From an uncultured Burkholderiales bacterium (GTDB taxonomy: Bacteria > Pseudomonadota > Gammaproteobacteria > Burkholderiales > SHXO01), in NCBI GenBank assembly GCA_964523885.1, contig CAZFYX010000038.1, forward strand, positions 255 to 64,254: 64,000 nucleotides of DNA, written 5' to 3'. Below the pieces are notes generated by a model. The model saw only the letters and a program-made list of their open reading frames with translations, ran no database searches and was not told the origin of the DNA. Position numbers and translations under genes: made by a program. Positions 13,978 through 56,083 of this stretch are shown here, in pieces. Positions within the stretch are counted from its first letter, which is position 1, and every line of letters starts with the position of its first letter.

Positions 13978-14059
13978 GTTTGGTGCGGGGCAGGGTGGCC
14001 GGGAATGCGCTGCAGCTAGGCTGATCCTGGAAGGGGCGATGGATCCGCCCGGGCGAGGC

Positions 14060-15025: not shown

Positions 15026-15149
15026 GGGCGCCGGTGGCCGTTCCTGGTCGACGCGGAGCGACTGGAGGGGGCGGCTGGCTGGACCAACACGACGACGTGG
15101 CGGGCGGGAGCGAGGCGGCGCGCTCGCGCATCGCCGCCCGCGGTGCCCT

Positions 15150-16007: not shown

Positions 16008-16408
16008 GCCGATCTCTCCATTCCTTTGACTTGTAAGTATTCCCTTGCCGAAGCGCCTGAAGCAGGGAGCGGGCGCTGCCACGGCCAGTGCCCGCTCACT
16101 TCCAACTCGAGGGCGAAGCTCAAGAACGTGCGGATGGCCACGATCACCGCCAGCACGCCCAGGTTCTGCAACGTGGGCTCGATCGCGACGGTCCCGATGA
16201 TGTCGGCGATGACGAGCAATTCCAGCCCGAGCAGGATCGCCCGGCCGAGATCAGCGCGCAGCATGTGGTAGGCATCCTGGAAGGTGGCACGCCGCACGAT
16301 GCGCGTCGCAAAGGCCCCGCCGGCGAAAACCGCCCCGAGCAGGAGCACCGCGACGCCCGCCACTTCGACCAGCTTCGCCGATTCGGCGACGAGGTGTTCG
16401 AATTCCAT
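16004..16408 (-). CDS. DUF1622-like small integral membrane protein
   Basis: The hydrophobic pattern includes RADLGRAILLGLELLVIADIIGTV. The stop overlaps the ppk2 start (ATGA). The alternative ATG at 16435 adds 9 codons that include rare CTA and AGA, so 16408 is preferred. Confidence 0.5.
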   Translation of the reverse strand: MEFEHLVAESAKLVEVAGVAVLLLGAVFAGGAFATRIVRRATFQDAYHMLRADLGRAILLGLELLVIADIIGTVAIEPTLQNLGVLAVIVAIRTFLSFALELEVSGHWPWQRPLPASGASAREYLQVKGMERSA

Positions 16409-16533
16409 TCTGTTGAGCTGCGTGCAGCCTAGCATTTTGGCTCTGGATGCACCGCAATCCGTTGTTAATTCTCGACGCCGGCGCGGCGCCGACCGTCCCC
16501 GAAGTCTTATCGCACGCAGGTCCGGGCGGATGC

Positions 16534-16547
16534 TTGACCTGCGTCAA
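16534..16547. promoter_or_regulatory. FNR/CRP-family-type box TTGAC-N4-GTCAA (perfect palindrome) in the divergent DUF1622-ppk2 / GH63 region
   Basis: TTGACctgcGTCAA is read directly. The minus-strand -10 candidate GATAAG (16506-16511) is centred exactly 32 nt from the box centre. The plus-strand candidate CAAAGT (16570-16575) is weaker. Confidence 0.5.
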
Positions 16548-16646
16548 GCAGCGGGCAGTGCAGCTCCCCCAAAGTGGCAGCGCGGCAGCATGCCTGCCCA
16601 CCTGCGCACGACTCATTCTCTCATCCTGCCACATCGGAGGCCCGCC

Positions 16647-30222: not shown

Positions 30223-31041
30223 ATGGGCACCGTCATCGCGTTTCGCCGTCCGCCACACTGGCTCACGCACTACGAGCGCGGCCAGGTGCGCTCGATCGCG
30301 GCCTGGAAGGCGGCCCGGCCCGGCGCGTACGAGAGCTTCGTGCGCGGCCTCACCCGCCCGCTCGCCGAGAACGTGCATACGCTCCTCAAGCCCTCCGTGG
30401 TGCGCGTGTTCGGCGATCTGCTGGAGTACCTCAACAGCCGCTTCGCGCGCGACCACGACCTGACCCGGGACGCGGGCATCCGCGGCGCGGGCATCCTCGA
30501 CATCGAAAGCCTGTCACAGAAGCCGCTGGAGGTGGCCGACGCTGTCGCGGACTACGTGATTGCCGATGCGCGCAGCCGCGCGGTGGCGGCGGGCGCGGCG
30601 AGCGGCCTGGCCACCCCGGTGGCCCTGGCGCTGGGCATCCCCGCGGCATTCAGCGCCGCCTTGCGCGCAAGCCATCGGGTGGCGCAGGCCTACGGGTGCT
30701 CCGGCGAAGCCCAGTCCGATCGCGCCATGGTGCTGCAGGTACTGGCCCTGTCCCTGGCAGTGACGCGTGCGGAACGCACCCGGGCGATGCAGGACTACCG
30801 GCGCCAGCTCGAGCACGCGTTCGTCAACTCCGCGGTCGACGAGATCATCCAGATCATCATCGAGCGCACCGTCGTGCGGCTGCAGCTGGGGAGCGCTGTG
30901 CCCGGCCTCGGCGTCCTGATCAGCGCCCGCGTCCACGGCCGCTTCGTCGAGCGCGCCGCCGTATGCGCCAAGCGCGTGTTCCAGGAACGTTGGCTGCGCA
31001 CGCGCGGCAAGGTGGACTGGATCGAGCCTCGCGCCGCCTAG
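30223..31041 (+). CDS. EcsC-family protein, paralogue 1
   Basis: 272 aa. It has the EcsC-like pattern (ADYVIADARSRAV...HRVAQAYG...VFQERWLRTRGKV) and is about half identical by eye to 32295..33134. Confidence 0.6.
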   Translation: MGTVIAFRRPPHWLTHYERGQVRSIAAWKAARPGAYESFVRGLTRPLAENVHTLLKPSVVRVFGDLLEYLNSRFARDHDLTRDAGIRGAGILDIESLSQKPLEVADAVADYVIADARSRAVAAGAASGLATPVALALGIPAAFSAALRASHRVAQAYGCSGEAQSDRAMVLQVLALSLAVTRAERTRAMQDYRRQLEHAFVNSAVDEIIQIIIERTVVRLQLGSAVPGLGVLISARVHGRFVERAAVCAKRVFQERWLRTRGKVDWIEPRAA

Positions 31042-31208
31042 AGCGAGCGTCCCCCGCCCGGCGTCCGCTGCGTCCCAGAGCGCCGGGTGTCCGCAACGCC
31101 CCTGCACTTGTCATGCCGCGCGCATTGCGGGAGAATTCTCGTTCGCACCCCCCGCACCGTCGCCCCTCGGCCGCACGGCCCAAATCGCTGCAGGCTGTCC
31201 GCACCGTC

Positions 31209-31502
31209 ATGCCCGAGTACCGTATCTTCCAGTCCGTCTCCGTCGAGCTGTTCGAGCGCTTCCAGGCGCTCGGTCGCACCTACGACGTCATGTATGACCC
31301 GCCCTCCGGGCCCAACGGATATGCGCACGCCAGGACCCCGCTGGGGATCTGCAAGGTCGCGTTTGCGCTCGATGCGGAGAAGTCGCAACTCACGCTGGTG
31401 ATCTGCGAGAAGCCGATGCTCGTGCCCGCCAACAAGGTCTGGCAGGTGCTCGGGGACGCGATCGACGATTGCCGGGCGCAGGACGGCGCAACAGCGCGCT
31501 GA
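31209..31502 (+). CDS. Hypothetical small protein (97 aa), no recognised family
   Basis: GC3-rich codon pattern throughout and an ATG start. No obvious SD. It sits between EcsC paralogue 1 and the 260-aa gene. Confidence 0.5.
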   Translation: MPEYRIFQSVSVELFERFQALGRTYDVMYDPPSGPNGYAHARTPLGICKVAFALDAEKSQLTLVICEKPMLVPANKVWQVLGDAIDDCRAQDGATAR

Positions 31503-31515
31503 CGCGGGTCCCCAC

Positions 31516-32298
31516 GTGACCGCGGTGTTTCGCCAGCAGGCCCTGGCGCGCTGGCCCCGCTTCGCAGCGGCACTCGATGCACACTTCCCTGGCGCGATCG
31601 AGCTCACCGACTACGTGACCCGGTCCGCACGGGCGCTTGGGCGGCATGGTTTCGGCGACGCCAACACGCTGGGCGTCGTGGTCACCTGCCGTGACGAGAT
31701 CGCCACGCCCCTGCACACCCAGGTGATGCAGGCCTGGGGCAAGACCTTCGATGGCCGCAGCCTTGCCGGCTTCCTCTCCATGGGGGCGACCGGCATCGAC
31801 GCCGCGCTGTCGCATGCCCCCGTCGTCGACGGCCACGCGCGCTTCGCGCTCTATGCGATGCCGCACATCGCGATCTCCGAGGACGGCGTGATCGGCAACG
31901 TCTATCGCGAGAGCCTGCAGCAGGTCTCGCACGCGTGCGGCTCGCTGGCCGGCGTGCTGCACCAGCTGGAGGCGGGGCACGCGCGCCGCGTGATCGACCT
32001 GGACGACATCGAGCAGAGCCTGGTGAAGGGCCTGCTTCTGACCGCCCTGCGGCACGGCGAGGCGCGCGACCTCCTGGCGGTGACGCAGCTCGCTGGCCGG
32101 CTGATCACCGAGGATGTGGGACGCCTGGTCCTGGCCGCCGACCCGGCGCGGTACAGCTACGCGGTGTTCACCGGGGTGCTCGTGCACGGTCCTGGTGACG
32201 TTCACTGGGTCCACCCGCTGCATGCGTACGCGCGCGGTGTCGCCGTGGGCACCGGGACCGCCCACCTGACCGACCTGCACCTCGCGGTCGCGCGTTAG
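31516..32298 (+). CDS. Hypothetical 260-aa soluble protein with a Cys...His...Cys pattern (possible beta-CA-like/LCIB-like fold)
   Basis: GTG start 13 nt after the previous stop and GC3-rich codons. Candidate ligands: VVVTCRDEI, MPHIAISEDG, QVSHACGSL. Confidence 0.55.
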   Translation: MTAVFRQQALARWPRFAAALDAHFPGAIELTDYVTRSARALGRHGFGDANTLGVVVTCRDEIATPLHTQVMQAWGKTFDGRSLAGFLSMGATGIDAALSHAPVVDGHARFALYAMPHIAISEDGVIGNVYRESLQQVSHACGSLAGVLHQLEAGHARRVIDLDDIEQSLVKGLLLTALRHGEARDLLAVTQLAGRLITEDVGRLVLAADPARYSYAVFTGVLVHGPGDVHWVHPLHAYARGVAVGTGTAHLTDLHLAVAR

Positions 32299-33134
32299 CG
32301 CGCCCCGGGCGCGATCCACGCGACCTTGCCGCGGTCGCGCAGCCAGCGTTCCTGGAACACGTGCTTCGCTGCCACCGCCGCCTTCTCGACGAAGCGCGCG
32401 TGCAGGTAGGCGTTCATCAGTACGCCTGCGGCCGGCACTGCGGTGCCGAGCTGCACCCGGACGACGATGCGGCGCAGGAGCGCCGAGGCCGTATCCTCCA
32501 CCATCGAGCCCACCATGCCGTCCGCGAGCGCGACCTGGCAGTCGCGCAGTGCCCGTTCGTGGTCGCGGCGCGACACCGCCAGCGAGAGCGCCAGCGTCTG
32601 CAGCGCCAGGCGGCGGTCGACCGCCGTGTCGCCCGGGTAGCCATAGGCCTGCGCGACACGATGGATCGCGCGCAGCGCTGCGTCGAGCGCGACGGGCACG
32701 CCAACGGCGAGTGCGGTGGGCGAGGTGAATCCGGTCAGGGCGCCGGCCTTCACCGCGCGGCTGCGCGCATCGGCGATCACGTAGTCGGCCAGCACGTCGG
32801 CGTACTCGAGCGGGCGGCCGGCGAGGTCCTGCAGGGACGTGATGCCGGCCCGGCGCAGGCGCGCATCGCGGAGGATGCTGTCGCGCTCGGCGGTCCGCGC
32901 TGCCATGCGCTCGAGCACCGCATTCACCAGCCTGCCGATGGAGGGGCGCAGCGCCCGCTGCATGCCCCGTGTCACGGGGGCGGTCCAGCCCTGGAGGAAG
33001 CGCGCGAGCGCACCGGCCGGTGCGCCTTTCCACGCGGCGATCAGGCGCACCTGCTGGCGCTCGTAGCGCGACAGCGGCTGCGGCGGATGCACCCGTGAGA
33101 AGGGGAGGATGGTTCCTGGCGCGGTCGTTTCCAT
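32295..33134 (-). CDS. EcsC-family protein, paralogue 2 (last gene of the ATPase operon)
   Basis: 279 aa. ATG at 33132-33134. It shares the blocks ADYVIADARSRAV, HRVAQAYG and VFQERWLRDRGKV with paralogue 1. Its stop overlaps the stop of the convergent 31516..32298 gene. Confidence 0.6.
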   Translation of the reverse strand: METTAPGTILPFSRVHPPQPLSRYERQQVRLIAAWKGAPAGALARFLQGWTAPVTRGMQRALRPSIGRLVNAVLERMAARTAERDSILRDARLRRAGITSLQDLAGRPLEYADVLADYVIADARSRAVKAGALTGFTSPTALAVGVPVALDAALRAIHRVAQAYGYPGDTAVDRRLALQTLALSLAVSRRDHERALRDCQVALADGMVGSMVEDTASALLRRIVVRVQLGTAVPAAGVLMNAYLHARFVEKAAVAAKHVFQERWLRDRGKVAWIAPGAR

Positions 33135-33162
33135 GCACCACCTCGAAGCGTGCGGGTGCCCG

Positions 33163-33564
33163 CTACCCGTCGCGACGGCGATCGAGCGGCGGATAGCGCC
33201 GGTCGAGGTCGTCGAGTAGGCGGTTGATCTGGCGCAGCGCGGTGTGGATCGGGCGCGGCGCATGGCCGCGCTGCCACTTCTCCAGCTTGACGCGACCGGC
33301 CTTGGTCCGCGCGAGCAGGCCGATCAGGAGGATCGGCGCACCCAGGATGCCGGGGATGGCCAGCCCGATCAGGCCGGCCATGATAAGCGTGTTGCTGGTG
33401 CCGCGTGAGAGACGCTCCACGCGCTCGATGACGTACGCGTCCTCCTGCACTTCCAGCGCTTCGGCGGTGGCGGCGGTCACCGGCAGCAGTCGCGGATCGG
33501 GCCGGCCGAGGGGCGCGGGGAGCGGAACGACGCGGGTCTCGGTACTGTCTGGATTCTGGGTCAT
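33163..33564 (-). CDS. Small membrane protein (133 aa, central hydrophobic hairpin)
   Basis: ATG start 21 nt after the stop of the degenerate ATPase. The hydrophobic core is TLIMAGLIGLAIPGILGAPILLIGLLA. Confidence 0.55.
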   Translation of the reverse strand: MTQNPDSTETRVVPLPAPLGRPDPRLLPVTAATAEALEVQEDAYVIERVERLSRGTSNTLIMAGLIGLAIPGILGAPILLIGLLARTKAGRVKLEKWQRGHAPRPIHTALRQINRLLDDLDRRYPPLDRRRDG

Positions 33565-33585
33565 GGCGATGTTCTTTTCGCTGGC

Positions 33586-35967
33586 TCAGTCGGCAAGCGT
33601 GCTGGCGCGGTGTCGACCGGGATCGGGGACGGGGAGGGTTGCGGCGCCGGGCTGTACCCGCAGCGCTTGCAGGGCGCGCTTGGCGCGCTTGTATACGGCG
33701 AGCGTGCCGGCGTTGCTTGCCAGCACCACGGCAAGGCCGTTGAAGCCGAGCACGAACACGCCGGCGACGCAGAAGAGGTTGTAGCCGAGCACGGTGCGGC
33801 GCGTGCTCTTCAGGCGGTCGGCGTGCTCGCGTGCGCTGTGCAGGATCCCGGGCAGCGGGCGCAGGCGGCGGCCGAGGATCACGAAGTCGGCCGGGTTGCG
33901 CTCGACCGGCAGTGCGCCATCCAGTGCGATGGAGACGGCAGCGCTGCCGGCCAGCGGCAGCCCGTCGCAGTCGCCGACCACCGCGGCGTTGACGCCACGG
34001 CGGCGCAACCCCTCCATGAAGCGCACCTTGGTCGGTGCGGTCATGTCGCCGCTCGCGAGCCGGATGCCCAGTGCGTCGGCCAGCTTGCGGGTCTGCGCCT
34101 CGGGACGCTGGGAGATCAGGAACACCTCGACGCCGGCGTTGCGCAAGGCCGCGATCGTGGCCCTGGCTTCCGGCGGACCGCTGCGCCGGAAGCCGACGCG
34201 CGCGACTTCGACGCCGTCGATCTCGACGCGCAGCGCCGGCGGGGTGCGCTCCATCCCGGCAGGCCGGCCAAGCAGCGTGATGCGCTGGCCGTTGTTCTCC
34301 ACGGTGACCGCTTCCGCCTCCAGGCTCACCAGCGGCATCCGCGCTGGCTGCAGGCCCTGCGCGAGGCAGGCCTTCACCAGGGCCTCGGCGCGCTCGTCGC
34401 CGAGGTACAGCGCGGCCGAGGCGATGTGGGGGAGCAGGACGTGGGTGTCGAGCGCGCCGCGCGGCTTGATCCCTGCGACCTCCACCGCGGGCTCGTGCAG
34501 GTCGGCGTGATCGTCGATCACGACCATCGAGATCGCGCCGAGCGCCTGCAGCGCGGTGGGGTTGCGCACCAGCACGCCGGACTGCAGCAGTGTCCCGGCC
34601 TGATGCATCGCGCCCAGCGAAGCAGCCAGGGCCAGCCCGTTGGCATAGTCCGGGCGCAGGAGTGCGGAGGCGGTGGCCAGGTCACCCACCAGCAGCCCTA
34701 CGCCGGCGGTGGCCATGGTCGGCGCCACCGCGCCGTTGGCGAAGCGCTCGGCGCCTTCGTGCAGCGCGAGCCTGCGCGCGCTCGGCCGCGTCGCGTGCTC
34801 GAATGCGCGGCCGACCTGTGCACGCCATGCGTCGTCGCCGGTGCGCAGCACCTCGACCGTGATCGCCCCTTCGTACACCAGGCTGCCCGCCACGACGTCC
34901 GCGCCGGCCACCTTGCGGATCCAGGGGTTGGGCGCGGTGAGCGGCGGCTCGCGCACCAGTGCGCTGCCGTCCACCACCTTGCCATCGCCGGGCACCAGCT
35001 CGCCGGCGGCGACCCGTACGCGCGCACCGACCAGCGCTTCCCCGGTCACTGCAACCTCGCGCTCGGTATCCTCCAGATGCAAGGGCATCACCTGGTCCAA
35101 CAGGCCGTGGCCCTCGAGCGTGAGATCCTCGCGGTAGCGCTGCTCCCAGTAGCGGAAGCACCACAGCATGAGCGCCGCCGACAGGAACTGGCCGGTGCCG
35201 AGCGTCGCCACGATGATCGCCGTGTACAACAGCGGCAAGCCGGTCCGGCCCTGGGTCAGCTGGCGGCCGCCGGCACGCAGGATGTCGAGGTTGGCGACCA
35301 CCAGCAGACCGGCCGACAGCGGCGTGAGCGGCGCCAGCACGAGCTCGGCGGCGGCCAGGCCGACCGAGACGTTGGCGAGGCGGAAGTCCACCTGCGCCAT
35401 CGGCGGTGCGACCGCCAGGGCGATGGCGCGCTCCGCGATCCGCAGCACGCACTCGGCATCGAGGCTCGCGGGATCGAAGCGGATATCCATCCCGCGCACC
35501 AGCTTGCTGGCATGGGCACTCGCGATTCCGGGCACCGCCCGCAGGGCGGTCTGCGCCCGGCCCGTCGCGGCCTTGTCGTGCCCGAGGGCGCGGTGCCCGA
35601 TGAACAGATGCCCGGGCGCGACGTGCAGGCGTTCGGCGGTCGAGACCAGGGGCCCGTGCCGGTACAGCGTGACGACTTTGGCGCCGCTCCATGCCGGCAT
35701 GCGCTCACGGGGCAACCCGGTGCCGCGACCCTCGATCAGCCCGGCCAGCCCCTCCGTGAACGCTGCGCGCGCGCTCGCGCGCACGGCATAGCGGACGTGT
35801 GCAGCGCCCCGGTCGAGGTCGAGGCGGACGCTGCTCACCTCCGGACAGGCCAGCAGCCGGCGGGCAAGAGCGTCGGCGAGCGCGGGTCCCTGCGCGGAGC
35901 ACAGGCGGGGGTCGCGGATGCGCATGGCGTCGCGCTCGATGGCGACCTGGGGATGTTGGCCCTGCAT
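33586..35967 (-). CDS. Full-length P-type-ATPase paralogue with all catalytic motifs degenerate (predicted non-catalytic pseudo-ATPase)
   Basis: It is collinear with the 37546..40188 ATPase, but TGES is replaced by TAPN (34927-34938), DKTGT by DDHAD (34501-34515), SGD by SQR and GDGINDS by GDCDGLP. The ORF is intact over 793 codons, and 19 of 20 codons checked around DDHAD end in G/C. Confidence 0.7.
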   Translation of the reverse strand: MQGQHPQVAIERDAMRIRDPRLCSAQGPALADALARRLLACPEVSSVRLDLDRGAAHVRYAVRASARAAFTEGLAGLIEGRGTGLPRERMPAWSGAKVVTLYRHGPLVSTAERLHVAPGHLFIGHRALGHDKAATGRAQTALRAVPGIASAHASKLVRGMDIRFDPASLDAECVLRIAERAIALAVAPPMAQVDFRLANVSVGLAAAELVLAPLTPLSAGLLVVANLDILRAGGRQLTQGRTGLPLLYTAIIVATLGTGQFLSAALMLWCFRYWEQRYREDLTLEGHGLLDQVMPLHLEDTEREVAVTGEALVGARVRVAAGELVPGDGKVVDGSALVREPPLTAPNPWIRKVAGADVVAGSLVYEGAITVEVLRTGDDAWRAQVGRAFEHATRPSARRLALHEGAERFANGAVAPTMATAGVGLLVGDLATASALLRPDYANGLALAASLGAMHQAGTLLQSGVLVRNPTALQALGAISMVVIDDHADLHEPAVEVAGIKPRGALDTHVLLPHIASAALYLGDERAEALVKACLAQGLQPARMPLVSLEAEAVTVENNGQRITLLGRPAGMERTPPALRVEIDGVEVARVGFRRSGPPEARATIAALRNAGVEVFLISQRPEAQTRKLADALGIRLASGDMTAPTKVRFMEGLRRRGVNAAVVGDCDGLPLAGSAAVSIALDGALPVERNPADFVILGRRLRPLPGILHSAREHADRLKSTRRTVLGYNLFCVAGVFVLGFNGLAVVLASNAGTLAVYKRAKRALQALRVQPGAATLPVPDPGRHRASTLAD

Positions 35968-35994
35968 GGGGAGCGAGTGGTCGGGTGCGCGCGC

Positions 35995-36465
35995 TCAGCG
36001 CGCGGTGCGCTGGATCTCGATCGCCTCGCGGGCGCGCCCGGAGAGGCGGCCGGCGAGGGACTTGGCGTTCCGGTGCATGGCGATGAGGTTGAGGAATTCG
36101 CGCATGGCCGCTTCGGCTTCCTCGCGATCCTTCACCAGACCCAGGTGCAGGCGGAACCCATGCACCTGGTCGCGCTGCTTCTGCGCCGCGGCGGTCAGGT
36201 CGTGGACGATGACCACCGGCTCCTTCGTGGCGAGCACGCGGTCCTGCGCGGCCATCGCCTGCGACTGCTCGACGCTCAGCAGGAACAGCGGGTCGCCGGC
36301 CTGCAGGGCGTTGAGCTCGCCCAGGTGGGCATGCAGCACTTCGCTGGGGAGCGGCCTGGTGCGGGTGTCGACGACGTAGATGCGCAGCCGCGGCTGGGCC
36401 TTCGCCGGGTCGGACCAGCTCTCATTCGCGGCAACGAGCGTGTCCCGAGCGGCGTTGTCGTTCAC
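35995..36465 (-). CDS. Soluble protein of unrecognised family (156 aa), paralogue of the C-terminal domain of 36715..37485
   Basis: GTG start with GGAG 6 nt upstream. Shared blocks: PRLRIYVVDT / PRFKIFVVDT, VHDL, HGFRLHLGL / HGFRIHLGL, EF...I..HR. Confidence 0.6.
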   Translation of the reverse strand: MNDNAARDTLVAANESWSDPAKAQPRLRIYVVDTRTRPLPSEVLHAHLGELNALQAGDPLFLLSVEQSQAMAAQDRVLATKEPVVIVHDLTAAAQKQRDQVHGFRLHLGLVKDREEAEAAMREFLNLIAMHRNAKSLAGRLSGRAREAIEIQRTAR

Positions 36466-36483
36466 CCGGGACTCCGCATGCGG

Positions 36484-36681
36484 TCAGGATGCAGCCACGT
36501 ACGGCTGCAGCAGGCCTTCGGCGGCCATGTCCTCCAGCCGGGCGACCAGCGGATACTCCTCGCGGCCGAGCACCTGGTAGAGGTCGCGCAGCCGGCGGAT
36601 GCGCCGATAAATCTCGAAGGCCGTATAGGCGACCACGAGGGCGCCGAACACCATCGTCAGGATATCAGCCGTACGATCCAT
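36484..36681 (-). CDS. Small single-pass membrane protein (65 aa)
   Basis: ATG with GGAGGA 8 nt upstream. N-terminal TM segment (ILTMVFGALVVAYTAF) followed by a basic helix (EIYRRIRRLRDLY). It is tightly packed between the two paralogous genes (33-nt and 18-nt gaps). Confidence 0.55.
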   Translation of the reverse strand: MDRTADILTMVFGALVVAYTAFEIYRRIRRLRDLYQVLGREEYPLVARLEDMAAEGLLQPYVAAS

Positions 36682-36714
36682 GCCATGTCCTCCGGGTCCG
36701 CGCGTCCTGCCGGC

Positions 36715-37485
36715 TCAAATCTTCGCCAACAGGGCGATTGTATCCCTTAATCCCGCGCGCCTCAGCCGCTTCTGGACGTCGCGCTCGAGGGTGTTGGAGT
36801 CGCGGTGCAGGGTGATGAAGCGGGTGAATTCCTGCAGCATGTCCAGGGCGTGGGCGGGCGTGTTGGCCAGGCCGAGGTGGATGCGGAACCCGTGGAACTG
36901 CGGCCTGCCGGGACGGCTCTTCACCGCGAGGTCGTGGACACAGATCAACGGGTCCTTGCCGATCAGGGTGCGGTCCAGCTGGATGAAGTCGATAGACTGC
37001 GCGGGGCTGAGCACGAAGATCTGGTCCTCCGGCGCCAGCTTGGCGATCAGGCCGAAGTTGTCGCGCACGACCTGGCTGGCGGGGGAATGCCAGCCGGTGT
37101 CGACCACGAAGATCTTGAAGCGTGGCCCGGTCCTTCTGGCGGCGGCAGGCGCAGCGGCCACTGCAGGCACCGATGCCGCGGGGACCTGGTGCAAGGGTGA
37201 CACGTTCCCGGTCTGGGTCATGGGATGCTCCGGCGATAGCTCATGCGCAGGCGCAGCGGGCTCGTGCCCGTCCTGCGCTGCGTGCCCGGCGACCGCGACG
37301 TCGGCGGACGTGCCCGCCAACACGTCGAATTCCGTTCCGGCGGGGTGCGACACCTCGACGACATACGCCTCGACGGCGTCGAGGTGCGGACCGTCGAATG
37401 CAATCACGCTCTTCTGCGGGCTCCGTCGCCGTCCGTTGGCCAATGGCGGCGCATCCCTGCGCTTGCCGCGGCGCTTCTCGCTCAT
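36715..37485 (-). CDS. Protein of unrecognised family (256 aa): disordered basic/Ala-Pro-rich N-terminus plus a C-terminal domain paralogous to 35995..36465
   Basis: ATG at 37483-37485 with GGAGGAG 8 nt upstream. The C-terminal ~135 aa align by eye to the 156-aa protein at roughly one third to 40 percent identity. Confidence 0.6.
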   Translation of the reverse strand: MSEKRRGKRRDAPPLANGRRRSPQKSVIAFDGPHLDAVEAYVVEVSHPAGTEFDVLAGTSADVAVAGHAAQDGHEPAAPAHELSPEHPMTQTGNVSPLHQVPAASVPAVAAAPAAARRTGPRFKIFVVDTGWHSPASQVVRDNFGLIAKLAPEDQIFVLSPAQSIDFIQLDRTLIGKDPLICVHDLAVKSRPGRPQFHGFRIHLGLANTPAHALDMLQEFTRFITLHRDSNTLERDVQKRLRRAGLRDTIALLAKI

Positions 37486-37545
37486 CACCACATCTCCTCC
37501 ACGCGCAGCGGCACGGGACGCAGTCTCGCTACCTGCCGACCGCGA

Positions 37546-40188
37546 TCACGCCGCGGCTGCCACATCCGCCGTCCCGAAGCCAGCCGGATCGGCCTTGCGC
37601 TCCGCCCTCGCCGGGGCGGGCAGGGCCGGCGTCACCTGCGGTCGGCCCGGCACGAGCTCGTTGACCTGCGCGTTCAGGCCCGCGCTGCGCAGCTCCAGCT
37701 CCAGCCGGTGACGGCGCGCCGCCTCGTGCTGCGCGACCTTGCGCATCGGCCACACGCCGTTGGCGAGCGCCGCCAGGGCGGCGACATTGTTGGCGAGCAC
37801 CGAGGCGCCCACGCCGAAGCCCAGGGTGAACACGCCGGCCATGCACAGGGCGTTGGGCAGGATGATCATTCCCCAGCTGCGACGGATGTTGTGCTCGAGC
37901 GCCGTGGCGATGTCGCGCAGCTCGCACAGCTTGCCCAGGCCCTGCTCCATGAACACGATGTGCGCGGTGTCGGTGGCAATCGAGGTCGCGCCGCGCAGCG
38001 AGATCGCCACGTTGGCTTTCTTCAGCGCGATCGAGTCGTTGATGCCGTCGCCGACGAAGCAGACCTTGCGGCCTTCGGCCTGCAGCCTGGCGACGTATTC
38101 CGCCTTGTCCGCCGGCAGCACCTGAGCGAAGTAGCGGTCCATGCCGAGCTGCTCGGCGAGCTTGCGGGTGGGCGCCTCGTGGTCGCCGGAGATAATGGCG
38201 ATGTGCTTGATGCCGCGCTTGCGCAGACCGGCGATGATCTCGACCACCTCCGGGCGCACCGAGGCGCGCAGCTCCAGCGCGCCGCCGAGTGCACCGTCGA
38301 CCGCGACCATGACCATGGTGTGGCCCTCGCGGTGCGCCTCGTCCAGCGCGGCGGCGACGTCCGGCGGAACCGCGATGCCTTCCATGTCCATGAAGCGCGG
38401 GCTGCCCACCTTGATCGTGTGGCCGCCCACCCCCACGGTGATGCCGTACCCGACGCTGTACTGCGTCTCGTCGGTCGCCTGCAGCCTGAGGCCGGCTTCC
38501 TCGGCCTTGTGCAGGATCGCGAGCGCGATGGGATGGTGGAACTTGGCCTCGGCGGCGGCGGCGAAGCCCAGGATCTGCATGCCGTCGAAACCGTTGCAGG
38601 CGACGATGCGACCTACCTCGGGGCGCTCGCGGGTGAGGGTGCCGGTCTTGTCGAACAGGATCGTGTCCACGCTGTGCATGAGCTCCAGCGCGCGGCCGTC
38701 CTTCACCAGGATGCCGCGCTGCGCGCACAGGGCCAGCGAGGACAGCATCGCCAGCGGCGCGGCCATGCGGATGCCGGTGCCCAGGTCGCAGTTGAGGATG
38801 GCGACCGCACCGTTGGGGCCCATGGTGCCCATCGCCAGCGCACCGATCGCCAGGGTGGGGATGACCGCCTTGTCGGCCAGCTGCTCGCCCTTCTGCTGGG
38901 TGGCCATCTTGTAGCCGGCGGTGTCGTTCAGGATCTGCGCGATGCGCGCCGAGGCGGTGTCGCTGCCGGCCTTCTCGACCGACACGTAGACCTTGCCGGC
39001 GACCAGGATGGTGGAGGCGAAGACACGCTCGCCCACGCCCTTCTCCGCCGGCGTGGATTCGCCCGTGAGCGCGTGCTGGTCGACCATGGCCATGCCTTCG
39101 ACCACCACGCCGTCCACCGGCACCATGTCGCCGGTGTGTACCGCCACCACGTCGCCGGCATTGAGCTTGTCCAGGCTGACCTGGGTCTCCACGCCGTCGC
39201 GCACCAGCCACACGAAGCGCGGCTGCTTGCCGAATGCGCCGAGCAGCATGCGCTTGGAGTTGTCCTCGGTGCGCTTGACCAGCATGCGCCCGAACGACAG
39301 GCACCAGGCCAGCACCGCACCGGGGAAAATCTGCAGGGTGGACAGGCATCCGATCACCACGATCGAATCGAGCACGTCCACGCCGAGCCGACGCTCCTTG
39401 AACAACACGTCGTACGCGTTGCGGAAGCTGGGGATTGCGGTGTAGGCGAACAGTGCGGCCGACACCGGCAGCAGCGGTGGCGCTGCGAACTGCGCGAACG
39501 CGGCGAGCGGCAGCGAGCCGGTGCAGATCGCGAGGTGCAGGTCGAGCTTGTCGAGCTGGGTCGGATGCTCCGCGCTGGCCAGCGCGGCGTCGAGCACCTC
39601 CATGAGCTGCGCGACGTCGAGGATGCGCGGATCGTAGTCGATCTGCACCGCGCAGCTGATCGAGCTGCTCTTGAAGCGGTCCACGCCGTGCAGGGCCATC
39701 AGCTCGCGGTCGATGGCGTCGCACAGCGCCTGCTTGCGGTAGAGGACCGGATTCTTCAGGTGGACCGTGCCCAGCCGCCGGCGGGTGATCTGCCAGCCGG
39801 TCACCACGTGCCCGTAGCGGTGATAGTGCGCCACGCCGTGACGGTCGCGCACGCTGGACACCGGGGCGATCTGCGGCGGGCGCAACTCGACGGGCTGCCC
39901 CTCGCGAGTCCCGGCTTCGGCCGGCAGCAGCGGATCGGCATGCGTCATGACCGCGGCCAGGCGACCGAGCACATCGGCCAGCAGGCTGCGGGAGGGGTCG
40001 AAGCGCAACTGCGCCGCGGGGCGCCTGCCCTGGCCGATGGTTGCGCCCGACAAGTCGGTGGCGTGGAACGCGCGCTCCAGGAATCGCCGGCACAGGTCGC
40101 CCGCCGGGTCGGAGAACAGCGTCGCGCTGTGGATGTCGATGACGCCGGCGCGTGGGAAGGACAGCGCGACGTCGATGGTCGGTTCCAT
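37546..40188 (-). CDS. P-type ATPase, P1B-like architecture but lacking a CPx-type transmembrane motif and CxxC metal-binding domains
   Basis: TGES (39055-39066), DKTGT (38638-38652, verified codon by codon), FHHPIA, SGD and GDGINDS are all present. The membrane helix before the P-domain reads ILNCDLGTGIRMAAP (NCD at 38785-38793). The ATG at 40188 is preferred; the TTG at 40212 is an alternative. Confidence 0.8.
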   Translation of the reverse strand: MEPTIDVALSFPRAGVIDIHSATLFSDPAGDLCRRFLERAFHATDLSGATIGQGRRPAAQLRFDPSRSLLADVLGRLAAVMTHADPLLPAEAGTREGQPVELRPPQIAPVSSVRDRHGVAHYHRYGHVVTGWQITRRRLGTVHLKNPVLYRKQALCDAIDRELMALHGVDRFKSSSISCAVQIDYDPRILDVAQLMEVLDAALASAEHPTQLDKLDLHLAICTGSLPLAAFAQFAAPPLLPVSAALFAYTAIPSFRNAYDVLFKERRLGVDVLDSIVVIGCLSTLQIFPGAVLAWCLSFGRMLVKRTEDNSKRMLLGAFGKQPRFVWLVRDGVETQVSLDKLNAGDVVAVHTGDMVPVDGVVVEGMAMVDQHALTGESTPAEKGVGERVFASTILVAGKVYVSVEKAGSDTASARIAQILNDTAGYKMATQQKGEQLADKAVIPTLAIGALAMGTMGPNGAVAILNCDLGTGIRMAAPLAMLSSLALCAQRGILVKDGRALELMHSVDTILFDKTGTLTRERPEVGRIVACNGFDGMQILGFAAAAEAKFHHPIALAILHKAEEAGLRLQATDETQYSVGYGITVGVGGHTIKVGSPRFMDMEGIAVPPDVAAALDEAHREGHTMVMVAVDGALGGALELRASVRPEVVEIIAGLRKRGIKHIAIISGDHEAPTRKLAEQLGMDRYFAQVLPADKAEYVARLQAEGRKVCFVGDGINDSIALKKANVAISLRGATSIATDTAHIVFMEQGLGKLCELRDIATALEHNIRRSWGMIILPNALCMAGVFTLGFGVGASVLANNVAALAALANGVWPMRKVAQHEAARRHRLELELRSAGLNAQVNELVPGRPQVTPALPAPARAERKADPAGFGTADVAAAA

Positions 40189-40285
40189 GGGACTCAAGTC
40201 GTACCTCGGCAAGCGTTCTCGTCACGCACCGGCGGTGCGTTGCCCGGCCCGCGGACGCTCGCCCGCGGGCTGGCGCACTGCAGGG

Positions 40286-40645
40286 TCAGTGGCCGGACGC
40301 GTCCTCGACCGGCGCCGCGTACTCGCCGATGCCCTTGGCCTCGTTCACCGCGTCGATTGCCGCGCTCGCACCGTCCTTCAGGCCGCGCACGAAGGGGTTC
40401 TCCTGCGGGACGGACTTGGCGATGAAGACCGCGGCATAGACCAGTCCGTAGGAGATCATGTAGGAGCCGGTGTAGGCGGCCCGCGAAGCGGCGTTGGCGA
40501 TCTCGGGCCCGGCGTTGCCGAGCTTGGCGCGCAGGCTGGCTGCGTCGTTGGTGGCCGCACTGGCCGCCTTGCGCATGGCGTCGGCCACGGCGGACAGGGG
40601 ATCGGACCCGGCGGCTTCGGGGGCGGCGGCTTCGGCGCTCGACAT
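40286..40645 (-). CDS. Small Ala-rich membrane-anchored protein (119 aa), first gene of the ATPase operon
   Basis: ATG at 40643-40645 with a strong AAGGAGAAA SD. One hydrophobic segment (YMISYGLVYAAVFIA) is flanked by Ala-rich helices. Confidence 0.6.
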   Translation of the reverse strand: MSSAEAAAPEAAGSDPLSAVADAMRKAASAATNDAASLRAKLGNAGPEIANAASRAAYTGSYMISYGLVYAAVFIAKSVPQENPFVRGLKDGASAAIDAVNEAKGIGEYAAPVEDASGH

Positions 40646-40896: not shown

Positions 40897-41592
40897 TCAG
40901 ACCAGGTTCGACAGGGCATTGACCACCAGGCCCAGGATCAGGACCACGAAGAAGAACGACAGGACGGCGTGGACCAGGGTCAGCCGCCGCATGGTCCAGC
41001 CGGTGACGGACACGTCCGAGGTCTGGTAGCACATGGCGATGGTGAACGAGTAGTACATGAAATCCCAGTAGTCCGGGGTGTCCCGCTCCGGGAAGTCGAG
41101 TCCGCGGCGGTATTCCCGCTTGCCCGCCAGGACATGGTCGTCGTAGTACAGCCGCATGTAGTACAGCCCGACGAACAGGTTGAACAGCACCCAGGACAGC
41201 GCCACCGCCAGCATCGACATCACCTGGTGCAGGTTGCTCACCCACGCGGGCCAGCCCTTTACCGGCTCGAGCATGAAGATGACGCCGACGATGCTGGTGG
41301 CCACGACCACCGACGCCGTGATGACCGCGCGCAGCCCGCTCGGCTCCCCCTCGCTGGCCATGACCGCGCATTCCTCGGGCTCCACGGTGGTGAAGCGGAA
41401 GGCGCTCAGCGCGAGGTAGGCCAGGGTTCCGAGGTTGAAGGCCAGCACCAGGCGGGTGCTGACGGGGAGGGCTGCCGCGGCGAAGTACGCGACGACCGTC
41501 AGCACCAGCGCAAGGGCCAGGCTCGCAAGCGGGGATGCGAAGGCGGCACCCGGCGCGGGGTGCGACATCTTGTCGCGGTCAGCCTTGTTCAT
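40897..41592 (-). CDS. DUF1345-like integral membrane protein
   Basis: Multi-pass hydrophobic profile with the characteristic DYWDFMYYSFTIAMCYQTSDV block. ATG at 41590-41592. Confidence 0.6.
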   Translation of the reverse strand: MNKADRDKMSHPAPGAAFASPLASLALALVLTVVAYFAAAALPVSTRLVLAFNLGTLAYLALSAFRFTTVEPEECAVMASEGEPSGLRAVITASVVVATSIVGVIFMLEPVKGWPAWVSNLHQVMSMLAVALSWVLFNLFVGLYYMRLYYDDHVLAGKREYRRGLDFPERDTPDYWDFMYYSFTIAMCYQTSDVSVTGWTMRRLTLVHAVLSFFFVVLILGLVVNALSNLV

Positions 41593-41794
41593 CGTGTCCT
41601 TGTCCCGGCCGTCGGTGCCGACGCCGGGTCTGCGCAACCGTTGCGTGCCCTGCCTGGAAAACCGCACCGCACACTATGCCGTCGTGCTGCGGAGGAGTCA
41701 TTGGCACTTCTTGACAGCTCGCGCACCGCGCGGTGCAGTGCGGGAACGAGAACCAGAGCCAACCGGGCGCCGCCATGCCACAATCCCGCCCCGC

Positions 41795-54724: not shown

Positions 54725-54904
54725 ACGTCATCCCTTTGTGCTGCATGCGCACGTAGTGGTGGAAAGATTGCACATGCCACTTTAGTATTGAGGGTTGGCC
54801 CGGTCCGGGGCCCGCGTTGTATGCAATTCGCGACAGCAGCGTCGCTTTCCCGCCCGGCCACGGATGCTCCAACACCCAGACGAAAAGTACGGAGACCTGA
54901 ACCC

Positions 54905-56068: not shown

Positions 56069-56083
56069 CCGGGACGCGCCCAC

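Follow-up and report, generated by a model that had tools for sequence, protein, structure and literature searches.

We propose, with a probability of about 0.5, that a gene cluster from an uncultured Burkholderiales bacterium encodes a conserved multi-subunit cation pump, whose substrate is probably a hard cation and which is tied to polyphosphate. The cluster lies in a stretch of 64,000 nt, which we call the window. It pairs a P1B-type ATPase that has all its catalytic motifs (the live ATPase) with a full-length paralogue that has lost them (the dead ATPase). As far as our literature searches showed, the cluster has no published description, in agreement with the novelty claimed in an earlier note made from the sequence of this DNA.

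Results

Organization of the gene cluster

By ORF coordinates and pairwise comparison, we confirmed eleven ORFs with the order, spacing and paralogy described earlier, and 10 of the 10 gene models checked exactly match proteins called in public assemblies (Table 1). The minus-strand run of eight genes has intergenic gaps of 97, 60, 33, 18, 27, 21 and 28 nt, and the convergent gene of a 260-aa protein overlaps the stop codon of its last gene by 4 nt. The start of the plus-strand EcsC gene is uncertain; its ORF opens at 30082, and candidate ATG codons lie at 30205 and 30223. Scanned with simple consensus sequences, the eight-gene run showed no internal site resembling a promoter or terminator. 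We also searched for a Fur, Zur, MntR or PhoB box, a riboswitch and a metal-responsive regulator, and recognised none of these. Performing the profile searches that the earlier note had proposed, we assigned the ATPase and EcsC families and newly recognised an LCIB-type protein. Five of the cluster's proteins matched no Pfam or NCBIfam family.

Table 1. Genes of the cluster and one flanking gene, with their positions in the window
Product	Position	Strand	Basis or remark
m119, 119 aa	40286-40645	minus	exact match to called protein
live P1B-type ATPase, 880 aa	37546-40188	minus	TIGR01525 above cut-off
partner 1, 256 aa	36715-37485	minus	C-terminal half homologous to 156-aa protein
m65, 65 aa	36484-36681	minus	single-pass membrane protein; exact match to called protein
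partner 2, 156 aa	35995-36465	minus	AF2 model, Foldseek
pseudo-ATPase (dead ATPase), 793 aa	33586-35967	minus	P1B fold, catalytic motifs gone
m133, 133 aa	33163-33564	minus	helical-hairpin membrane protein
EcsC-family protein, 279 aa, final gene of minus-strand run	32295-33134	minus	Pfam EcsC
LCIB-type (theta) carbonic-anhydrase homologue, 260 aa	31516-32298	plus	Pfam LCIB_C_CA
p97, 97 aa	31209-31502	plus	AF2 model
second EcsC-family protein	about 30223-31041	plus	Pfam EcsC
DUF1345 membrane protein, possible accessory gene	40897-41667	minus	Pfam DUF1345

The cluster is conserved across phyla

We found 36 further loci, each in a different GTDB species-representative genome and all of them MAGs. 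The loci span Gammaproteobacteria, Alphaproteobacteria and Acidobacteriota, the host groups being Methylococcaceae, Steroidobacteraceae, Acetobacteraceae/Stellaceae, other Alphaproteobacteria and Acidobacteriaceae. The recurrent order is m119-ATPase-partner-m65-[dead ATPase]-m133-[p97 or EcsC], with a conserved core of m119, live ATPase, a partner with a probable thioredoxin fold, m65 and m133, and with the dead ATPase as an optional member. Among cultured methanotrophs, Methylomagnum ishizawai and Methylococcus mesophilus have the same gene order, and Methyloterricola oryzae and Methylolobus aquaticus also carry the cluster. This neighbourhood census supports the earlier view of a coherent module, with a live and a dead ATPase and dedicated accessory proteins. 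That view had taken ATPase plus partner as the repeated unit. The comparative order instead reads ATPase-(partner-65aa)n-dead ATPase, where n is 1 or 2, and shows the partner-m65 pair as the repeat. Locus L012, on a contig of only 5.4 kb, has this pair twice and no dead ATPase before the m133 gene.

The earlier note saw no clue to the substrate. Two kinds of clue emerged, namely the loss of soft ligands at the membrane site of the live ATPase and the recurrence of CAX, PPK1, Nramp-like and PitA genes nearby. A Ca2+/H+ exchanger (CAX, above the NCBIfam 'cax' equivalog cut-off) lies within 10 kb in 10 loci, PPK1 in 10, a divergent Nramp in 8 and PitA in 3. CAX, PPK1 and Nramp are each spread over two or more of the three groups, and ppk1 adjoins the cluster in three different arrangements. 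We found no iron genes or Fur box near the cluster. In some alphaproteobacterial loci, the adjoining module consists of a second ATPase type, with the motifs D-Y-G-T-G and S-N-G-S, and an HMA_2 protein with two TM helices. As to the ion, CAX favours Ca2+ and Nramp favours Mn2+/Fe2+, and neither neighbour is universal.

The live ATPase has no soft ligands at conserved membrane-site positions

The live ATPase scored 404.6 bits on the P1B model TIGR01525 (cut-off 346.25). Its sequence has TGES, DKTGT, HP and GDGIND all intact, as claimed earlier, and reads as eight predicted TM helices behind an N-terminus of two HMA_2-like domains. The catalytic motifs are kept in the 12 live orthologues of our alignment. 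P1B ATPases comprise seven subtypes, which are sorted by their membrane metal-binding motifs. To our knowledge, all of these subtypes use Cys, His or Met. None of the three residues is found at family-conserved membrane-site positions of the live ATPase, where the motifs are N-C/S-D-x-G-T-G-I-R-M-A-A-P, P-N and N-N...L-A-N-G. In an alignment with LpCopA (3rfu), CPC corresponds to L-G-T and the MxxSS region has only Asn. Throughout the live family, x-G-T stands in place of CPC, and the Asp just before it is invariant. Both the live ATPase and the second ATPase type invariably have this TM4 Asp and, five residues downstream, an Arg. A simple divalent-cation site does not explain the conserved Arg.

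Live orthologues are 63-75% identical across three phylum/class-level groups, N-terminal domains included. Such tight conservation is unusual and is consistent with many interaction surfaces. More than 1,800 relatives fall below E 1e-40, and many among the best 120 are 64-75% identical. Public databases annotate the live protein as 'heavy metal translocating P-type ATPase' or 'Cu2+-exporting ATPase'.

We tried several known identities and rejected them. The Cu+/Zn2+/Cd2+ pumps of P1B-1 and P1B-2 (CopA, ZntA, CadA) do not fit, as TIGR01511, TIGR01512, NF007952 and NF033775 all stayed below their cut-offs and TM4 has no CPC, APC or SPC. P1B-6 (FezB) identity fails on N-S/C-D-x-G-T-G and t-N-N-v-A in place of D[Y/F]SCA and HNxxT. 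The KdpB model gave 144 bits against a cut-off of 527.9.

The paralogue has lost every catalytic motif and kept polar membrane residues

The 793-aa paralogue reached only 123 bits on TIGR01525 (cut-off 346.25), and the two ATPases are 26% identical over ~700 residues (E 6e-43). DDHAD stands in the place of DKTGT, LTAPN in that of TGES and GDCDG in that of GDGIND, and HP and TGD are also gone, so that the complete motif loss reported earlier for this full-length paralogue is confirmed. Judged by these motifs, it is a P1B homologue in fold and a pseudoenzyme. All 14 dead-type orthologues of at least 400 aa from other genomes, comprising 13 full-length copies (~800 aa) and a 509-aa piece of the split copy in locus L002, lack DKTGT and GDGxND. 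Thus, the inactivation is old and maintained, and does not reflect decay. The dead ATPase gene has a GC3 of 0.90, a typical coding value for this genome. Dead-type orthologues are 35-40% identical, and their hosts are Gammaproteobacteria, Alphaproteobacteria and Acidobacteria. The TM4 Asp, the TM5 Pro-Asn and the TM6 Asn are kept at 90% or more in this family, with the membrane motifs p-D-Y-a-t-g and i-s-N-l-g. Since the protein would neither bind nor hydrolyse ATP and yet keeps polar ion-site residues, it is most likely a non-catalytic membrane partner.

The pseudo-ATPase had been called obligate-looking, which the census does not support. The dead ATPase occurs in only 15 of the 36 loci, compared with 29 for the live ATPase, and complete-looking clusters exist without it. 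On the L002 contig, the 10 kb around the split dead ATPase and m133 contain no live pump. Because the dead ATPase is missing from many clusters and L002 has no live pump, its role may be looser than that of a stoichiometric subunit.

Soluble partners and small membrane proteins

The 256-aa partner combines a disordered basic N-terminal tail with a cysteine-less domain of ~135 aa that has a probable thioredoxin fold; the 156-aa partner is the same domain with a short tail. The paralogy seen earlier holds, the 156-aa protein being 36% identical to the C-terminal half of the 256-aa protein (E 1e-25). A partner gene is present in 35 of the 36 loci, and the family, which has no Pfam match, comprises 198 representatives when clustered at 50%. 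The AF2 model of the 156-aa protein (pLDDT 78, core >90) has a beta-alpha-beta-alpha-beta-alpha-beta-alpha topology. Its best Foldseek matches were redox-inactive PDI b' domains, thioredoxins and KaiB, all of them weak (E 6.7e-3 or worse, TM 0.37-0.55), and a sequence profile search of the PDB found nothing. The 60-sequence partner alignment has no CxxC/CxxS and no conserved cysteine at all. Near-invariant residues are D33, G35, W36, L63, S68, G80, D82, P83, G103, L108 and G109.

The m119 protein had been described as a membrane protein with a strong Shine-Dalgarno sequence. The latter is there (GGAGA, 7 nt ahead of the start), and the former is less clear. An Ala/Asp-rich amphipathic N-terminus is followed by one aromatic-rich, weakly hydrophobic helix that is borderline for a membrane span (maximum Kyte-Doolittle 19-mer 1.31). 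The m119 gene is present in 27 of the 36 loci, always directly upstream of the live ATPase, and its product is 52% identical to the Methylococcales orthologue. The m65 protein carries a TM helix at its N-terminus (residues 4-25) with an R-rich juxtamembrane stretch; its gene always follows a partner gene (29/36 loci), and the Methylococcales orthologue is 35% identical. Neither m119 nor m65 matched Pfam even at E 10, DUF1490 and DUF6110 included. The m133 protein, found in 25 of the 36 loci, has a hydrophobic hairpin at 57-87 with the motif PG..G.PF and a conserved cytosolic C-terminal DDLERRYP. Comparing m65 with m133, we detected no homology (hhalign probability 0.2%). Orthologues of m133 match DUF454/YbaN weakly and over the hairpin only, with 11-23 bits against a gathering threshold of 35.1 (E 1e-4 to 0.36); the m133 of the window itself has no such match.

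A DUF1345 protein (Pfam E 4.6e-46) is encoded directly upstream of m119 on the same strand. In loci L007, L014, L018 and L037, too, DUF1345 is encoded no more than 10 kb from the cluster, and in L037 it stands immediately before the m119 gene. The 251-nt gap to the next gene in the window makes co-transcription uncertain.

EcsC proteins, p97 and the LCIB-type carbonic anhydrase homologue

The two EcsC paralogues noted earlier are 53% identical and both match Pfam EcsC (PF12787), with 86.2 bits for the 279-aa protein and 83.1 bits for the plus-strand protein (cut-off 30.4). An EcsC gene follows the dead ATPase or m133 in the Methylococcales, Methylomagnum and Methylococcus loci. An EcsABC system was considered and rejected, as there is no ABC-transporter domain in the cluster proteins or the scanned flanking genes. 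The 260-aa protein, previously an unknown, is an LCIB-type theta-carbonic-anhydrase homologue (Pfam LCIB_C_CA, PF18599, E 7.5e-50). Cys58, Asp60, His117 and Cys141 are invariant among three homologues and, by analogy with beta/theta carbonic anhydrases, would be the putative zinc site. An LCIB gene is also present in the Methylomagnum cluster and in locus L003.

The soluble p97 was modelled by AF2 (pLDDT 89.7) as a beta-alpha-beta4-alpha, KA1-like fold. Its best Foldseek matches were KA1/AMPK-alpha C-terminal and COR domains (TM 0.5-0.69, E only 0.017 or worse), and no sequence match was found in the PDB. The partner and p97 models suggest interaction-type folds without catalytic residues. The p97 gene is in line with the pump genes in 13 loci, usually right after m133. 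The plus-strand genes had been taken as a separate convergent unit; elsewhere, p97, EcsC and LCIB are all in line with the pump genes, and they are part of the same system.

Discussion

A model of the pump and its alternatives

In the model that we favour, the live ATPase would hydrolyse ATP and move a hard cation out of the cytoplasm, most likely Ca2+ and next Mn2+/Fe2+; a thiophilic metal would be excluded. The small membrane proteins m119, m65 and m133 would work with the pump, and one or two cysteine-less thioredoxin-fold proteins would serve as cytosolic adaptors and not as enzymes. The dead ATPase, added in about half of the lineages, could act in the membrane as a scaffold, conduct the ion or sense it. 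EcsC, KA1-like p97 and the LCIB-type carbonic anhydrase might form an outer accessory layer. To handle divalent cations and phosphate, the module would cooperate with PPK1, CAX, Nramp-like import and PitA. We infer physical complex formation solely from synteny, and the identity of the ion from the chemistry of the ligands and from the neighbouring genes; which way the ion is moved and what each accessory protein does are likewise presumed.

The public heavy-metal and Cu2+-exporting annotations and the passed general P1B model would suggest an ordinary Cu/Zn/Cd efflux ATPase beside a decaying duplicate and unrelated small ORFs. We consider this very improbable, and it is already contradicted by the synteny and motif data. 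CPC, SPC, APC and other soft-ligand motifs are absent, and the Cu, Zn/Cd and CopA/ZntA equivalog cut-offs are not reached. Thirteen other genomes have a full-length dead copy, and only L002 has a split one; in the window, the GC3 of this copy is of the coding type, and every small ORF is conserved across phyla. The ATPase might instead pump protons or another non-metal, its TM4 Asp/Arg pair acting as in P3A H+-ATPases, and energise CAX and other exchangers of the same membrane. The pair is invariant in the live and second ATPase types, and the recurrent H+-coupled neighbours CAX, Nramp and PitA would need a proton gradient. However, the respiratory chain already energises the cytoplasmic membrane, and so such a pump is sensible only where there is an internal compartment. 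In other proteins, the P1B scaffold and HMA_2 domains go with metals, and the basis of the idea is a two-residue analogy; we find it improbable. A divergent true ferrosome (fez) cluster storing Fe2+ seems quite improbable as well. It shares the cluster logic of fez, Nramp-like Fe2+/Mn2+ importers adjoin the cluster in 8 loci, and the alphaproteobacterial second-ATPase module has an HMA_2 plus two-TM protein, as reported for FezC. However, D[Y/F]SCA and HNxxT are missing from the live, dead and second ATPases, no Cys or His is at family-conserved membrane-site positions, and the pump has 8 predicted TM helices against 6 reported for FezB. The surroundings have no Fur box or iron genes, and the hosts are mostly aerobes (methanotrophs, Acetobacteraceae, Acidobacteriaceae), whereas ferrosome hosts are mainly anaerobes.

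Less easily set aside, and in our view unlikely without being far-fetched, is that the cluster encodes a storage organelle with a lipid boundary, similar to a ferrosome or an acidocalcisome. A pump in the vesicle membrane would load a cation stored with phosphate, polyphosphate or carbonate, and the small hairpin and single-pass proteins would shape or mark the membrane. Acidocalcisome membranes hold a P-type pump, a Ca2+/H+ exchanger, polyphosphate synthesis, and phosphate and divalent-metal transporters; CAX, PPK1, the Nramp-like protein, PitA and carbonic anhydrase recall this inventory. The m133 protein is a helical hairpin, p97 is modelled with a KA1-like fold, and KA1 domains bind acidic membranes. 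However, the fold similarities are weak (E >0.001), bacterial PPK1 makes its polyphosphate in the cytoplasm, and these neighbours are also in keeping with normal cation homeostasis at the cell membrane. In architecture, the cluster resembles fez clusters (bioRxiv 10.1101/2020.01.10.902569), with the TM4 D-x-G-T-G in register with the P1B-6 motif D-[Y/F]-S-C-A, and intracellular Ca-carbonate inclusions of Pseudomonadota are membrane-bounded, without a known calcium pump (PMC11773610). Against this, the P1B-6 signature motifs are absent, and DUF4405, FeoA and DUF2202, the Fez accessory families, were not detected. A speculative and rather unlikely elaboration makes the module the core of a new organelle that stores minerals inside a membrane and is found in aerobic methanotrophs, acid-soil Alphaproteobacteria and Acidobacteria. 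This organelle would be a Ca/Mn-loading counterpart of the ferrosome, filled with polyphosphate, phosphate or carbonate via PPK1, PitA, CAX and LCIB-type carbonic anhydrase, and built on a heteromer of the active ATPase and an ion-binding ancient pseudo-ATPase.

Significance of the module

The live-ATPase clade is abundant, has none of the Cys, His or Met ligands at conserved membrane-site positions and is annotated as a copper or heavy-metal exporter, which would amount to widespread misannotation. Its substrate would widen the chemistry of the P1B class. A dead copy long retained beside its active relative is a natural experiment on the P-type ATPase scaffold without ATP. We know of no bacterial precedent for a kept full-length pseudo-P-type ATPase, and this would be the first described. 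The linkage with PPK1, CAX, Nramp-like proteins, PitA and carbonic anhydrase offers a handle on the old question of how bacteria load and organise cation-polyphosphate or intracellular carbonate deposits. Five protein families of the module are still without a name, and its presence in cultured methanotrophs opens it to testing now.

Comparison with known systems

Acidocalcisomes proper belong to eukaryotes, and acidocalcisome-like granules are reported in Agrobacterium and Rhodospirillum. The likeness here lies in a gene neighbourhood with a P-type pump, a Ca2+/H+ exchanger, polyphosphate synthesis and phosphate and divalent-metal transporters, in a subset of loci only. In contrast, the clusters have no V-type ATPase or H+-pyrophosphatase, and their polyphosphate-making enzyme is PPK1 and not VTC.

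Fez clusters encode a P1B-6-related ATPase (FezB), several tiny hydrophobic proteins and soluble proteins whose N-termini are basic; some have a second ATPase, FezH, with different membrane sites (bioRxiv 10.1101/2020.01.10.902569). FezD is another member, the small membrane proteins are FezA/C/E/G, and P1B-6/FezB is recognised by D[Y/F]SCA in TM4 and HNxxT in TM6 (bioRxiv 10.1101/2020.01.10.902569). In the present cluster, too, the P1B ATPase has no classical CxxC metal-binding domain, tiny hydrophobic and uncharacterised soluble proteins are encoded beside it, and some of the loci have a second ATPase with a different membrane site. The TM4 motif has the same register and the same leading Asp (D-Y/F-S-C-A versus D-x-G-T-G), and the neighbours here suggest a similar tie to phosphate-rich storage. 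Between the P1B-6 motifs and the three ATPase types here, only the leading Asp, an aromatic residue (2/3 types) and one Asn are common. However, the FezC-type HMA plus 2 TM, DUF4405, the FeoA domain and DUF2202 are unmatched in Pfam by the 11 window proteins, and an HMA_2 plus 2-TM protein occurs only in some alphaproteobacterial loci, beside a different ATPase. Conversely, descriptions of fez clusters include no thioredoxin-fold partner, m119, m65, m133, p97, EcsC or LCIB. Here, the second ATPase is a dead one, most hosts are aerobes, and the neighbours suggest Ca/Mn and polyphosphate and not Feo, Fur or siderophore genes.

In the PacL-Ctp 'effluxosomes' of Mycobacterium tuberculosis, the gene just upstream of that of a non-canonical P1B ATPase encodes a small protein which the pump needs to be stable and to cluster, and CtpC is P1B-6-like (PMC13460109). 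The Ala/Glu-rich cytosolic segment of PacL binds the N-terminal domain of the pump (PMC13460109). Similarly, the N-terminus of m119 is amphipathic and rich in Ala and Asp, and the m119 gene is always just ahead of the pump gene. However, the acidic Ala-rich segment of m119 comes before the hydrophobic helix, whereas in PacL the TM helix comes first. Moreover, m119 and m65 have no DUF1490 or DUF6110 match, and a pseudo-ATPase, a thioredoxin-fold partner and EcsC are all absent from PacL systems.

KdpFABC also combines a P-type ATPase with a non-hydrolysing membrane subunit that has ion-binding residues and with very small membrane peptides. In the present cluster, KdpA, KdpC and KdpF homologues are absent, the non-catalytic partner is dispensable in many lineages, and this partner is a degenerate P-type ATPase rather than channel-derived. 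Still, the membrane Asp and Asn kept by the dead ATPase would suit a conduit-like role.

Gene content of the locus

The open reading frames of the window locus fall into two convergent units, eight genes with gaps of 18-97 nt on one strand and three on the other, the last of which overlaps the stop codon of the minus-strand EcsC gene by 4 nt. All 10 gene models tested are identical to proteins in public assemblies, so their starts agree with independent gene calling. The 880-aa protein (the live ATPase) matched E1-E2_ATPase, Hydrolase, and TIGR01525 (404.6 bits against a cut-off of 346.25), which makes it a P1B-type ATPase. The 793-aa protein (the dead ATPase, or pseudo-ATPase) gave weak matches to the same models (TIGR01525, 123 bits). 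The two share 26% identity over about 700 residues (E 6e-43), and the 793-aa protein carries DDHAD for DKTGT, LTAPN for TGES, and GDCDG for GDGIND. The 156-aa protein is a paralogue of the 256-aa protein and aligns to its C-terminal half at 36% identity (E 1e-25); this shared domain defines the two partners. Both EcsC proteins scored above the Pfam threshold and are 53% identical to each other. The anatomy described in the earlier note (ORFs, spacing, overlap, paralogy, and motif loss) was thus as claimed, and the Pfam and NCBIfam models confirmed its ATPase and EcsC assignments. The 260-aa protein that it had listed as unknown is a homologue of LCIB-type (theta) carbonic anhydrases, with Cys58, Asp60, His117, and Cys141 invariant against the homologues from Methylomagnum and the related locus L003. 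In the window, this homologue is tied to a cation-pump cluster. To our knowledge, bacterial members of the LCIB family, known from algal CO2 concentration, are little studied.

The two partners and the small proteins of 119, 65, 133, and 97 aa (m119, m65, m133, and p97) belonged to no Pfam or NCBIfam family. When the Pfam threshold was relaxed to E 10, the five unnamed proteins still gave nothing, bar a weak DUF454 similarity of m133 orthologues. A promoter and terminator scan returned no informative site inside the operon.

Positions of features in the window and in related loci (L numbers) of other genomes
Feature	Location	Strand	Remark
Eight-gene operon	window 40645 down to 32295	-	
Three-gene unit	window, about 30223 to 32298	+	
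LCIB-type (theta) carbonic-anhydrase homologue, 260 aa	window 31516-32298	+	E 7.5e-50
DUF1345 membrane protein	window 40897-41667	-	directly upstream of the cluster, same strand
Acetate kinase, DUF3141 (790 aa), PPK2	window 9358-16082	-	grouped together some 15 kb away from the pump locus, not adjacent
Two paralogous MGH1-like/GH63 glycoside hydrolases, ~1,000 aa	window 16284-19391, 41435-44464	+	flank the region on either side
Isoamylase, glucose-6-phosphate dehydrogenase, 6-phosphogluconate dehydrogenase, ROK-family protein genes	window 47-53 kb		after the second glycoside hydrolase
Complete RND efflux operon (membrane-fusion protein, AcrB-type pump, outer-membrane factor)	window 54788-60764	+	
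EcsC, second live P1B ATPase, ~200-aa HMA_2/two-TM protein	L005 3364-6100, L016 3399-6000, L017 5-2000, L035 3284-6041		divergent module beside the cluster
Rearranged Methylococcus-type cluster	L019 6322-12751, L028 202-6621, L038 7653-10676		
Split dead-type ATPase, then m133 homologue	L002 10001-12909		
CHAD-domain protein	L041 19520-20515	-	near the Methylococcus mesophilus cluster

The cluster is conserved across genomes

A word-indexed homology search with the 156-aa protein returned only 3 matches, and an exhaustive profile search was needed to recover the family; the partner domain then comprised 198 cluster representatives at E 1e-3 or below. The genome scan was seeded with a 16-sequence partner alignment, a 52-sequence alignment being too diverse for this use. 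Scanning species-representative genomes, we found 36 loci, every one from a MAG, in Methylococcaceae, Steroidobacteraceae, Rhodopila, Stellaceae, other Alphaproteobacteria, and Acidobacteriaceae/Terracidiphilus. The samples were largely from peat, soil, and boreal lakes. Cultured hosts include Methylomagnum ishizawai, Methylococcus mesophilus, Methyloterricola oryzae, and Methylolobus aquaticus. A search of the plasmid collection found nothing related to the locus or the partner. Public annotation everywhere calls the pump only a heavy-metal or Cu2+ ATPase and the other cluster proteins hypothetical.

A component census by tblastn and ORF clustering located the partner in 35/36 loci, the live ATPase and m65 in 29 each, m119 in 27, m133 in 25, the dead ATPase in 15 (5 gammaproteobacterial, 6 alphaproteobacterial, 4 acidobacterial), p97 in 13, and EcsC in 9. 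The genes run in the order m119-ATPase-(partner-m65)n-[dead ATPase]-m133-[p97 or EcsC], where n is 1 or 2. The arrangement of the window recurs in one Methylococcales MAG (117 aa, ATPase, 182-aa partner, 67 aa, dead ATPase, EcsC, 142 aa), each small protein being homologous to its window counterpart. The cluster is thus a system conserved between genomes and did not come together by accident in this one alone. Two points of the earlier note need revision: the pseudo-ATPase is not obligate, given its frequency, and the duplicated unit is not ATPase plus partner, as the pair that repeats is partner-m65. L012, on a contig of only 5.4 kb, has two copies of this pair and then m133, no dead ATPase lying in between. 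In the three Methylococcus-type loci, the order is rearranged to ppk1-partner-m65-m119-ATPase, with PitA and a 279-aa protein convergent downstream; the dead ATPase and m133 are absent from their available sequence.

The membrane site of the live ATPase lacks Cys, His, and Met

DKTGT and GDGxND were kept in 27/27 live-type ORFs above 500 aa from the related loci, and the live clade is 63-75% identical across phyla, N-terminal domains included. In a HMMER alignment to Legionella CopA (3rfu), L-G-T (x-G-T in the family), preceded by an invariant Asp, lies opposite CPC; P-N lies opposite YN, and a stretch with Asn as the sole polar residues lies opposite the MxxSS helix. The family-conserved membrane-site positions contain no Cys, His, or Met. 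The published P1B classification holds CPC, SPC, PCP, SCA, and CSC sites only (PMC13460109). FezB, the P1B-6 ATPase of the ferrosome (fez) gene cluster, has the signature D-[Y/F]-S-C-A plus H-N-x-x-T in TM6 (bioRxiv 10.1101/2020.01.10.902569). The live ATPase places D-x-G-T-G-I-R-M-A-A-P in register with D-[Y/F]-S-C-A, but the defining S-C and the TM6 motif are missing. Model scores, consensus motifs, and the 3rfu alignment ruled out a FezB, CopA, or ZntA identity.

Several alphaproteobacterial loci carry a third ATPase type, 35% identical to the live pump, with D-Y-G-T-G-I-R-V-A-A-P in TM4. It adjoins another EcsC and a protein of HMA_2 plus two TM helices, the architecture described for FezC in the ferrosome paper (bioRxiv 10.1101/2020.01.10.902569). 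Because EcsC also stands beside this ATPase in the neighboring module, it accompanies the whole ATPase lineage.

The dead ATPase is a maintained pseudoenzyme

All 14 dead-type ORFs above 400 aa are without DKTGT and GDGxND; 13 are about 800 aa long, and the fourteenth is a 509-aa piece of a split copy in L002. The clade consensus has lost the HP (nucleotide-binding) and TGD motifs as well. Orthologues show 35-42% identity. Their domains still follow the usual order, and three membrane features (TM4 Asp, TM5 Pro-Asn, and one TM6 Asn) are conserved at 90% or more. The dead ATPase is therefore an old, maintained pseudoenzyme. A decaying pseudogene was ruled out by the ORF survey and by the GC3 of 0.90, the value of a real gene. 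The pseudo-ATPase may be a non-catalytic partner, optional to the cluster, with ion binding probably retained.

The L002 copy is split in two ORFs (509 + 248 aa), and the surrounding 10 kb contain neither live ATPase nor partner. Either this copy is decaying, or it indicates that the dead ATPase and m133 can exist as a pair of their own.

Soluble accessory proteins resemble interaction modules

The AF2 model of the partner domain has a confident core (pLDDT above 90 over residues 27-135) of thioredoxin-like topology and no conserved cysteine. Its best Foldseek matches, all weak, were redox-inactive PDI b' domains, thioredoxins, and KaiB. The N-terminal tail differs in length between members and is frequently, though not always, basic; an 'R-rich N-terminus' was dropped as a defining feature, being present in only about 23/60 sequences. 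The p97 model (pLDDT 89.7) is beta-alpha-beta4-alpha and comes closest, below significance, to KA1/AMPK-alpha C-terminal and COR domains. Neither the partner profile nor the p97 profile had a significant match among PDB sequences. None of the soluble components is enzyme-like; they look like interaction modules.

m65 has a single N-terminal TM helix followed by an R-rich stretch, and m133 a helical hairpin (PG..G.PF) and a conserved DDLERRYP tail, its similarity to DUF454/YbaN being sub-threshold. Although the two fell in one BLAST cluster, homology was rejected (hhalign probability 0.2%). m119 combines an Ala/Asp-rich amphipathic N-terminus with a weakly hydrophobic, aromatic-rich helix. It occupies the same operon position as the mycobacterial PacL chaperones (PMC13460109) but is not homologous to them. 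Extra m119 copies lie upstream of the cluster in L007, L013, L014, L021, and L026, several beside a CAX Ca2+/H+ exchanger gene.

Transporter and polyphosphate genes recur beside the cluster

We clustered all flanking ORFs within 10 kb and searched the representatives against Pfam and NCBIfam. CAX Ca2+/H+ exchangers, above the 'cax' equivalog cut-off, occurred at 10 loci in Gammaproteobacteria, Alphaproteobacteria, and Acidobacteria; PPK1 at 10 loci in all three groups; divergent Nramp at 8 alphaproteobacterial and acidobacterial loci; and PitA at 3 Methylococcus loci. LCIB was found at 2 loci (L003 and Methylomagnum) plus the window. A single-copy gene should be present in any given 20-kb stretch in far fewer than 1% of genomes, so the observed frequencies, in differing arrangements, cannot be put down to chance. 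The ppk1 gene of Methylococcus is co-directional with partner-m65-m119-ATPase and lies 80-120 nt upstream of it, and in alphaproteobacteria it is either upstream of the cluster or convergent downstream. The Methylomagnum order is dead ATPase-223 aa-EcsC-CAX-LCIB.

DUF1345, also found at 4 related loci (L007, L014, L018, and L037), is the sole recurrent neighbor adjacent to the window cluster. PPK2, 15 kb away, is a second polyphosphate enzyme in the window. In Methylococcus mesophilus, genes for RelA/SpoT and a CHAD-domain protein follow the cluster at a distance of a few genes downstream; CHAD domains are associated with polyphosphate granules.

Rfam searches of the window region (E 0.1 or below) and of 14 related loci (gathering score) gave no riboswitch or leader, one tRNA only. 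Consensus scans for Fur, Zur, MntR, and PhoB upstream of m119 at 28 loci gave no credible box, and no conserved regulator was found around the cluster.

Discussion

The best-supported reading of these sequences is a multi-subunit pump of P1B architecture for a hard cation. The live ATPase would work in concert with polyphosphate and H+-coupled cation/phosphate transporters, the pseudo-ATPase would join as an optional non-catalytic ion-binding partner, and the thioredoxin-fold partner and m65 would serve as a repeatable adaptor pair. Substrate clues, which the earlier note had considered absent, come from the membrane site and from the CAX, PPK1, Nramp, and PitA neighbors. We favor Ca2+ or Mn2+/Fe2+ as the pumped ion, the former because the ligand set is all-oxygen (Asp, Thr, Asn) and CAX is a neighbor, the latter because of the Nramp neighbors.

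The main alternative, rather unlikely in our estimate, is that the module would give rise to a storage compartment enclosed by lipid. Its cluster logic parallels that of fez clusters, and the neighbor inventory matches the transporter inventory of acidocalcisomes. The membrane-bounded intracellular Ca-carbonate of Pseudomonadota still has no known calcium pump (PMC11773610). However, no feature found here shows a compartment. A true ferrosome is a weaker proposal, as the defining motifs are missing, and so is an ordinary Cu/Zn/Cd exporter, which both motifs and synteny contradict. A proton pump, equally among the weaker readings, has the invariant TM4 Asp/Arg pair as its sole basis.

Literature searches that covered ferrosomes, the subtypes of P1B pumps, pseudo-ATPases, EcsC, PPK, and carbonate deposits inside cells found no description of this gene set, in line with the lack of precedent claimed earlier. 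We rate the cluster as one of a known kind, the P1B ATPase gene clusters with dedicated small partners, made unusual by its Cys/His-free membrane site and its conserved pseudo-ATPase.
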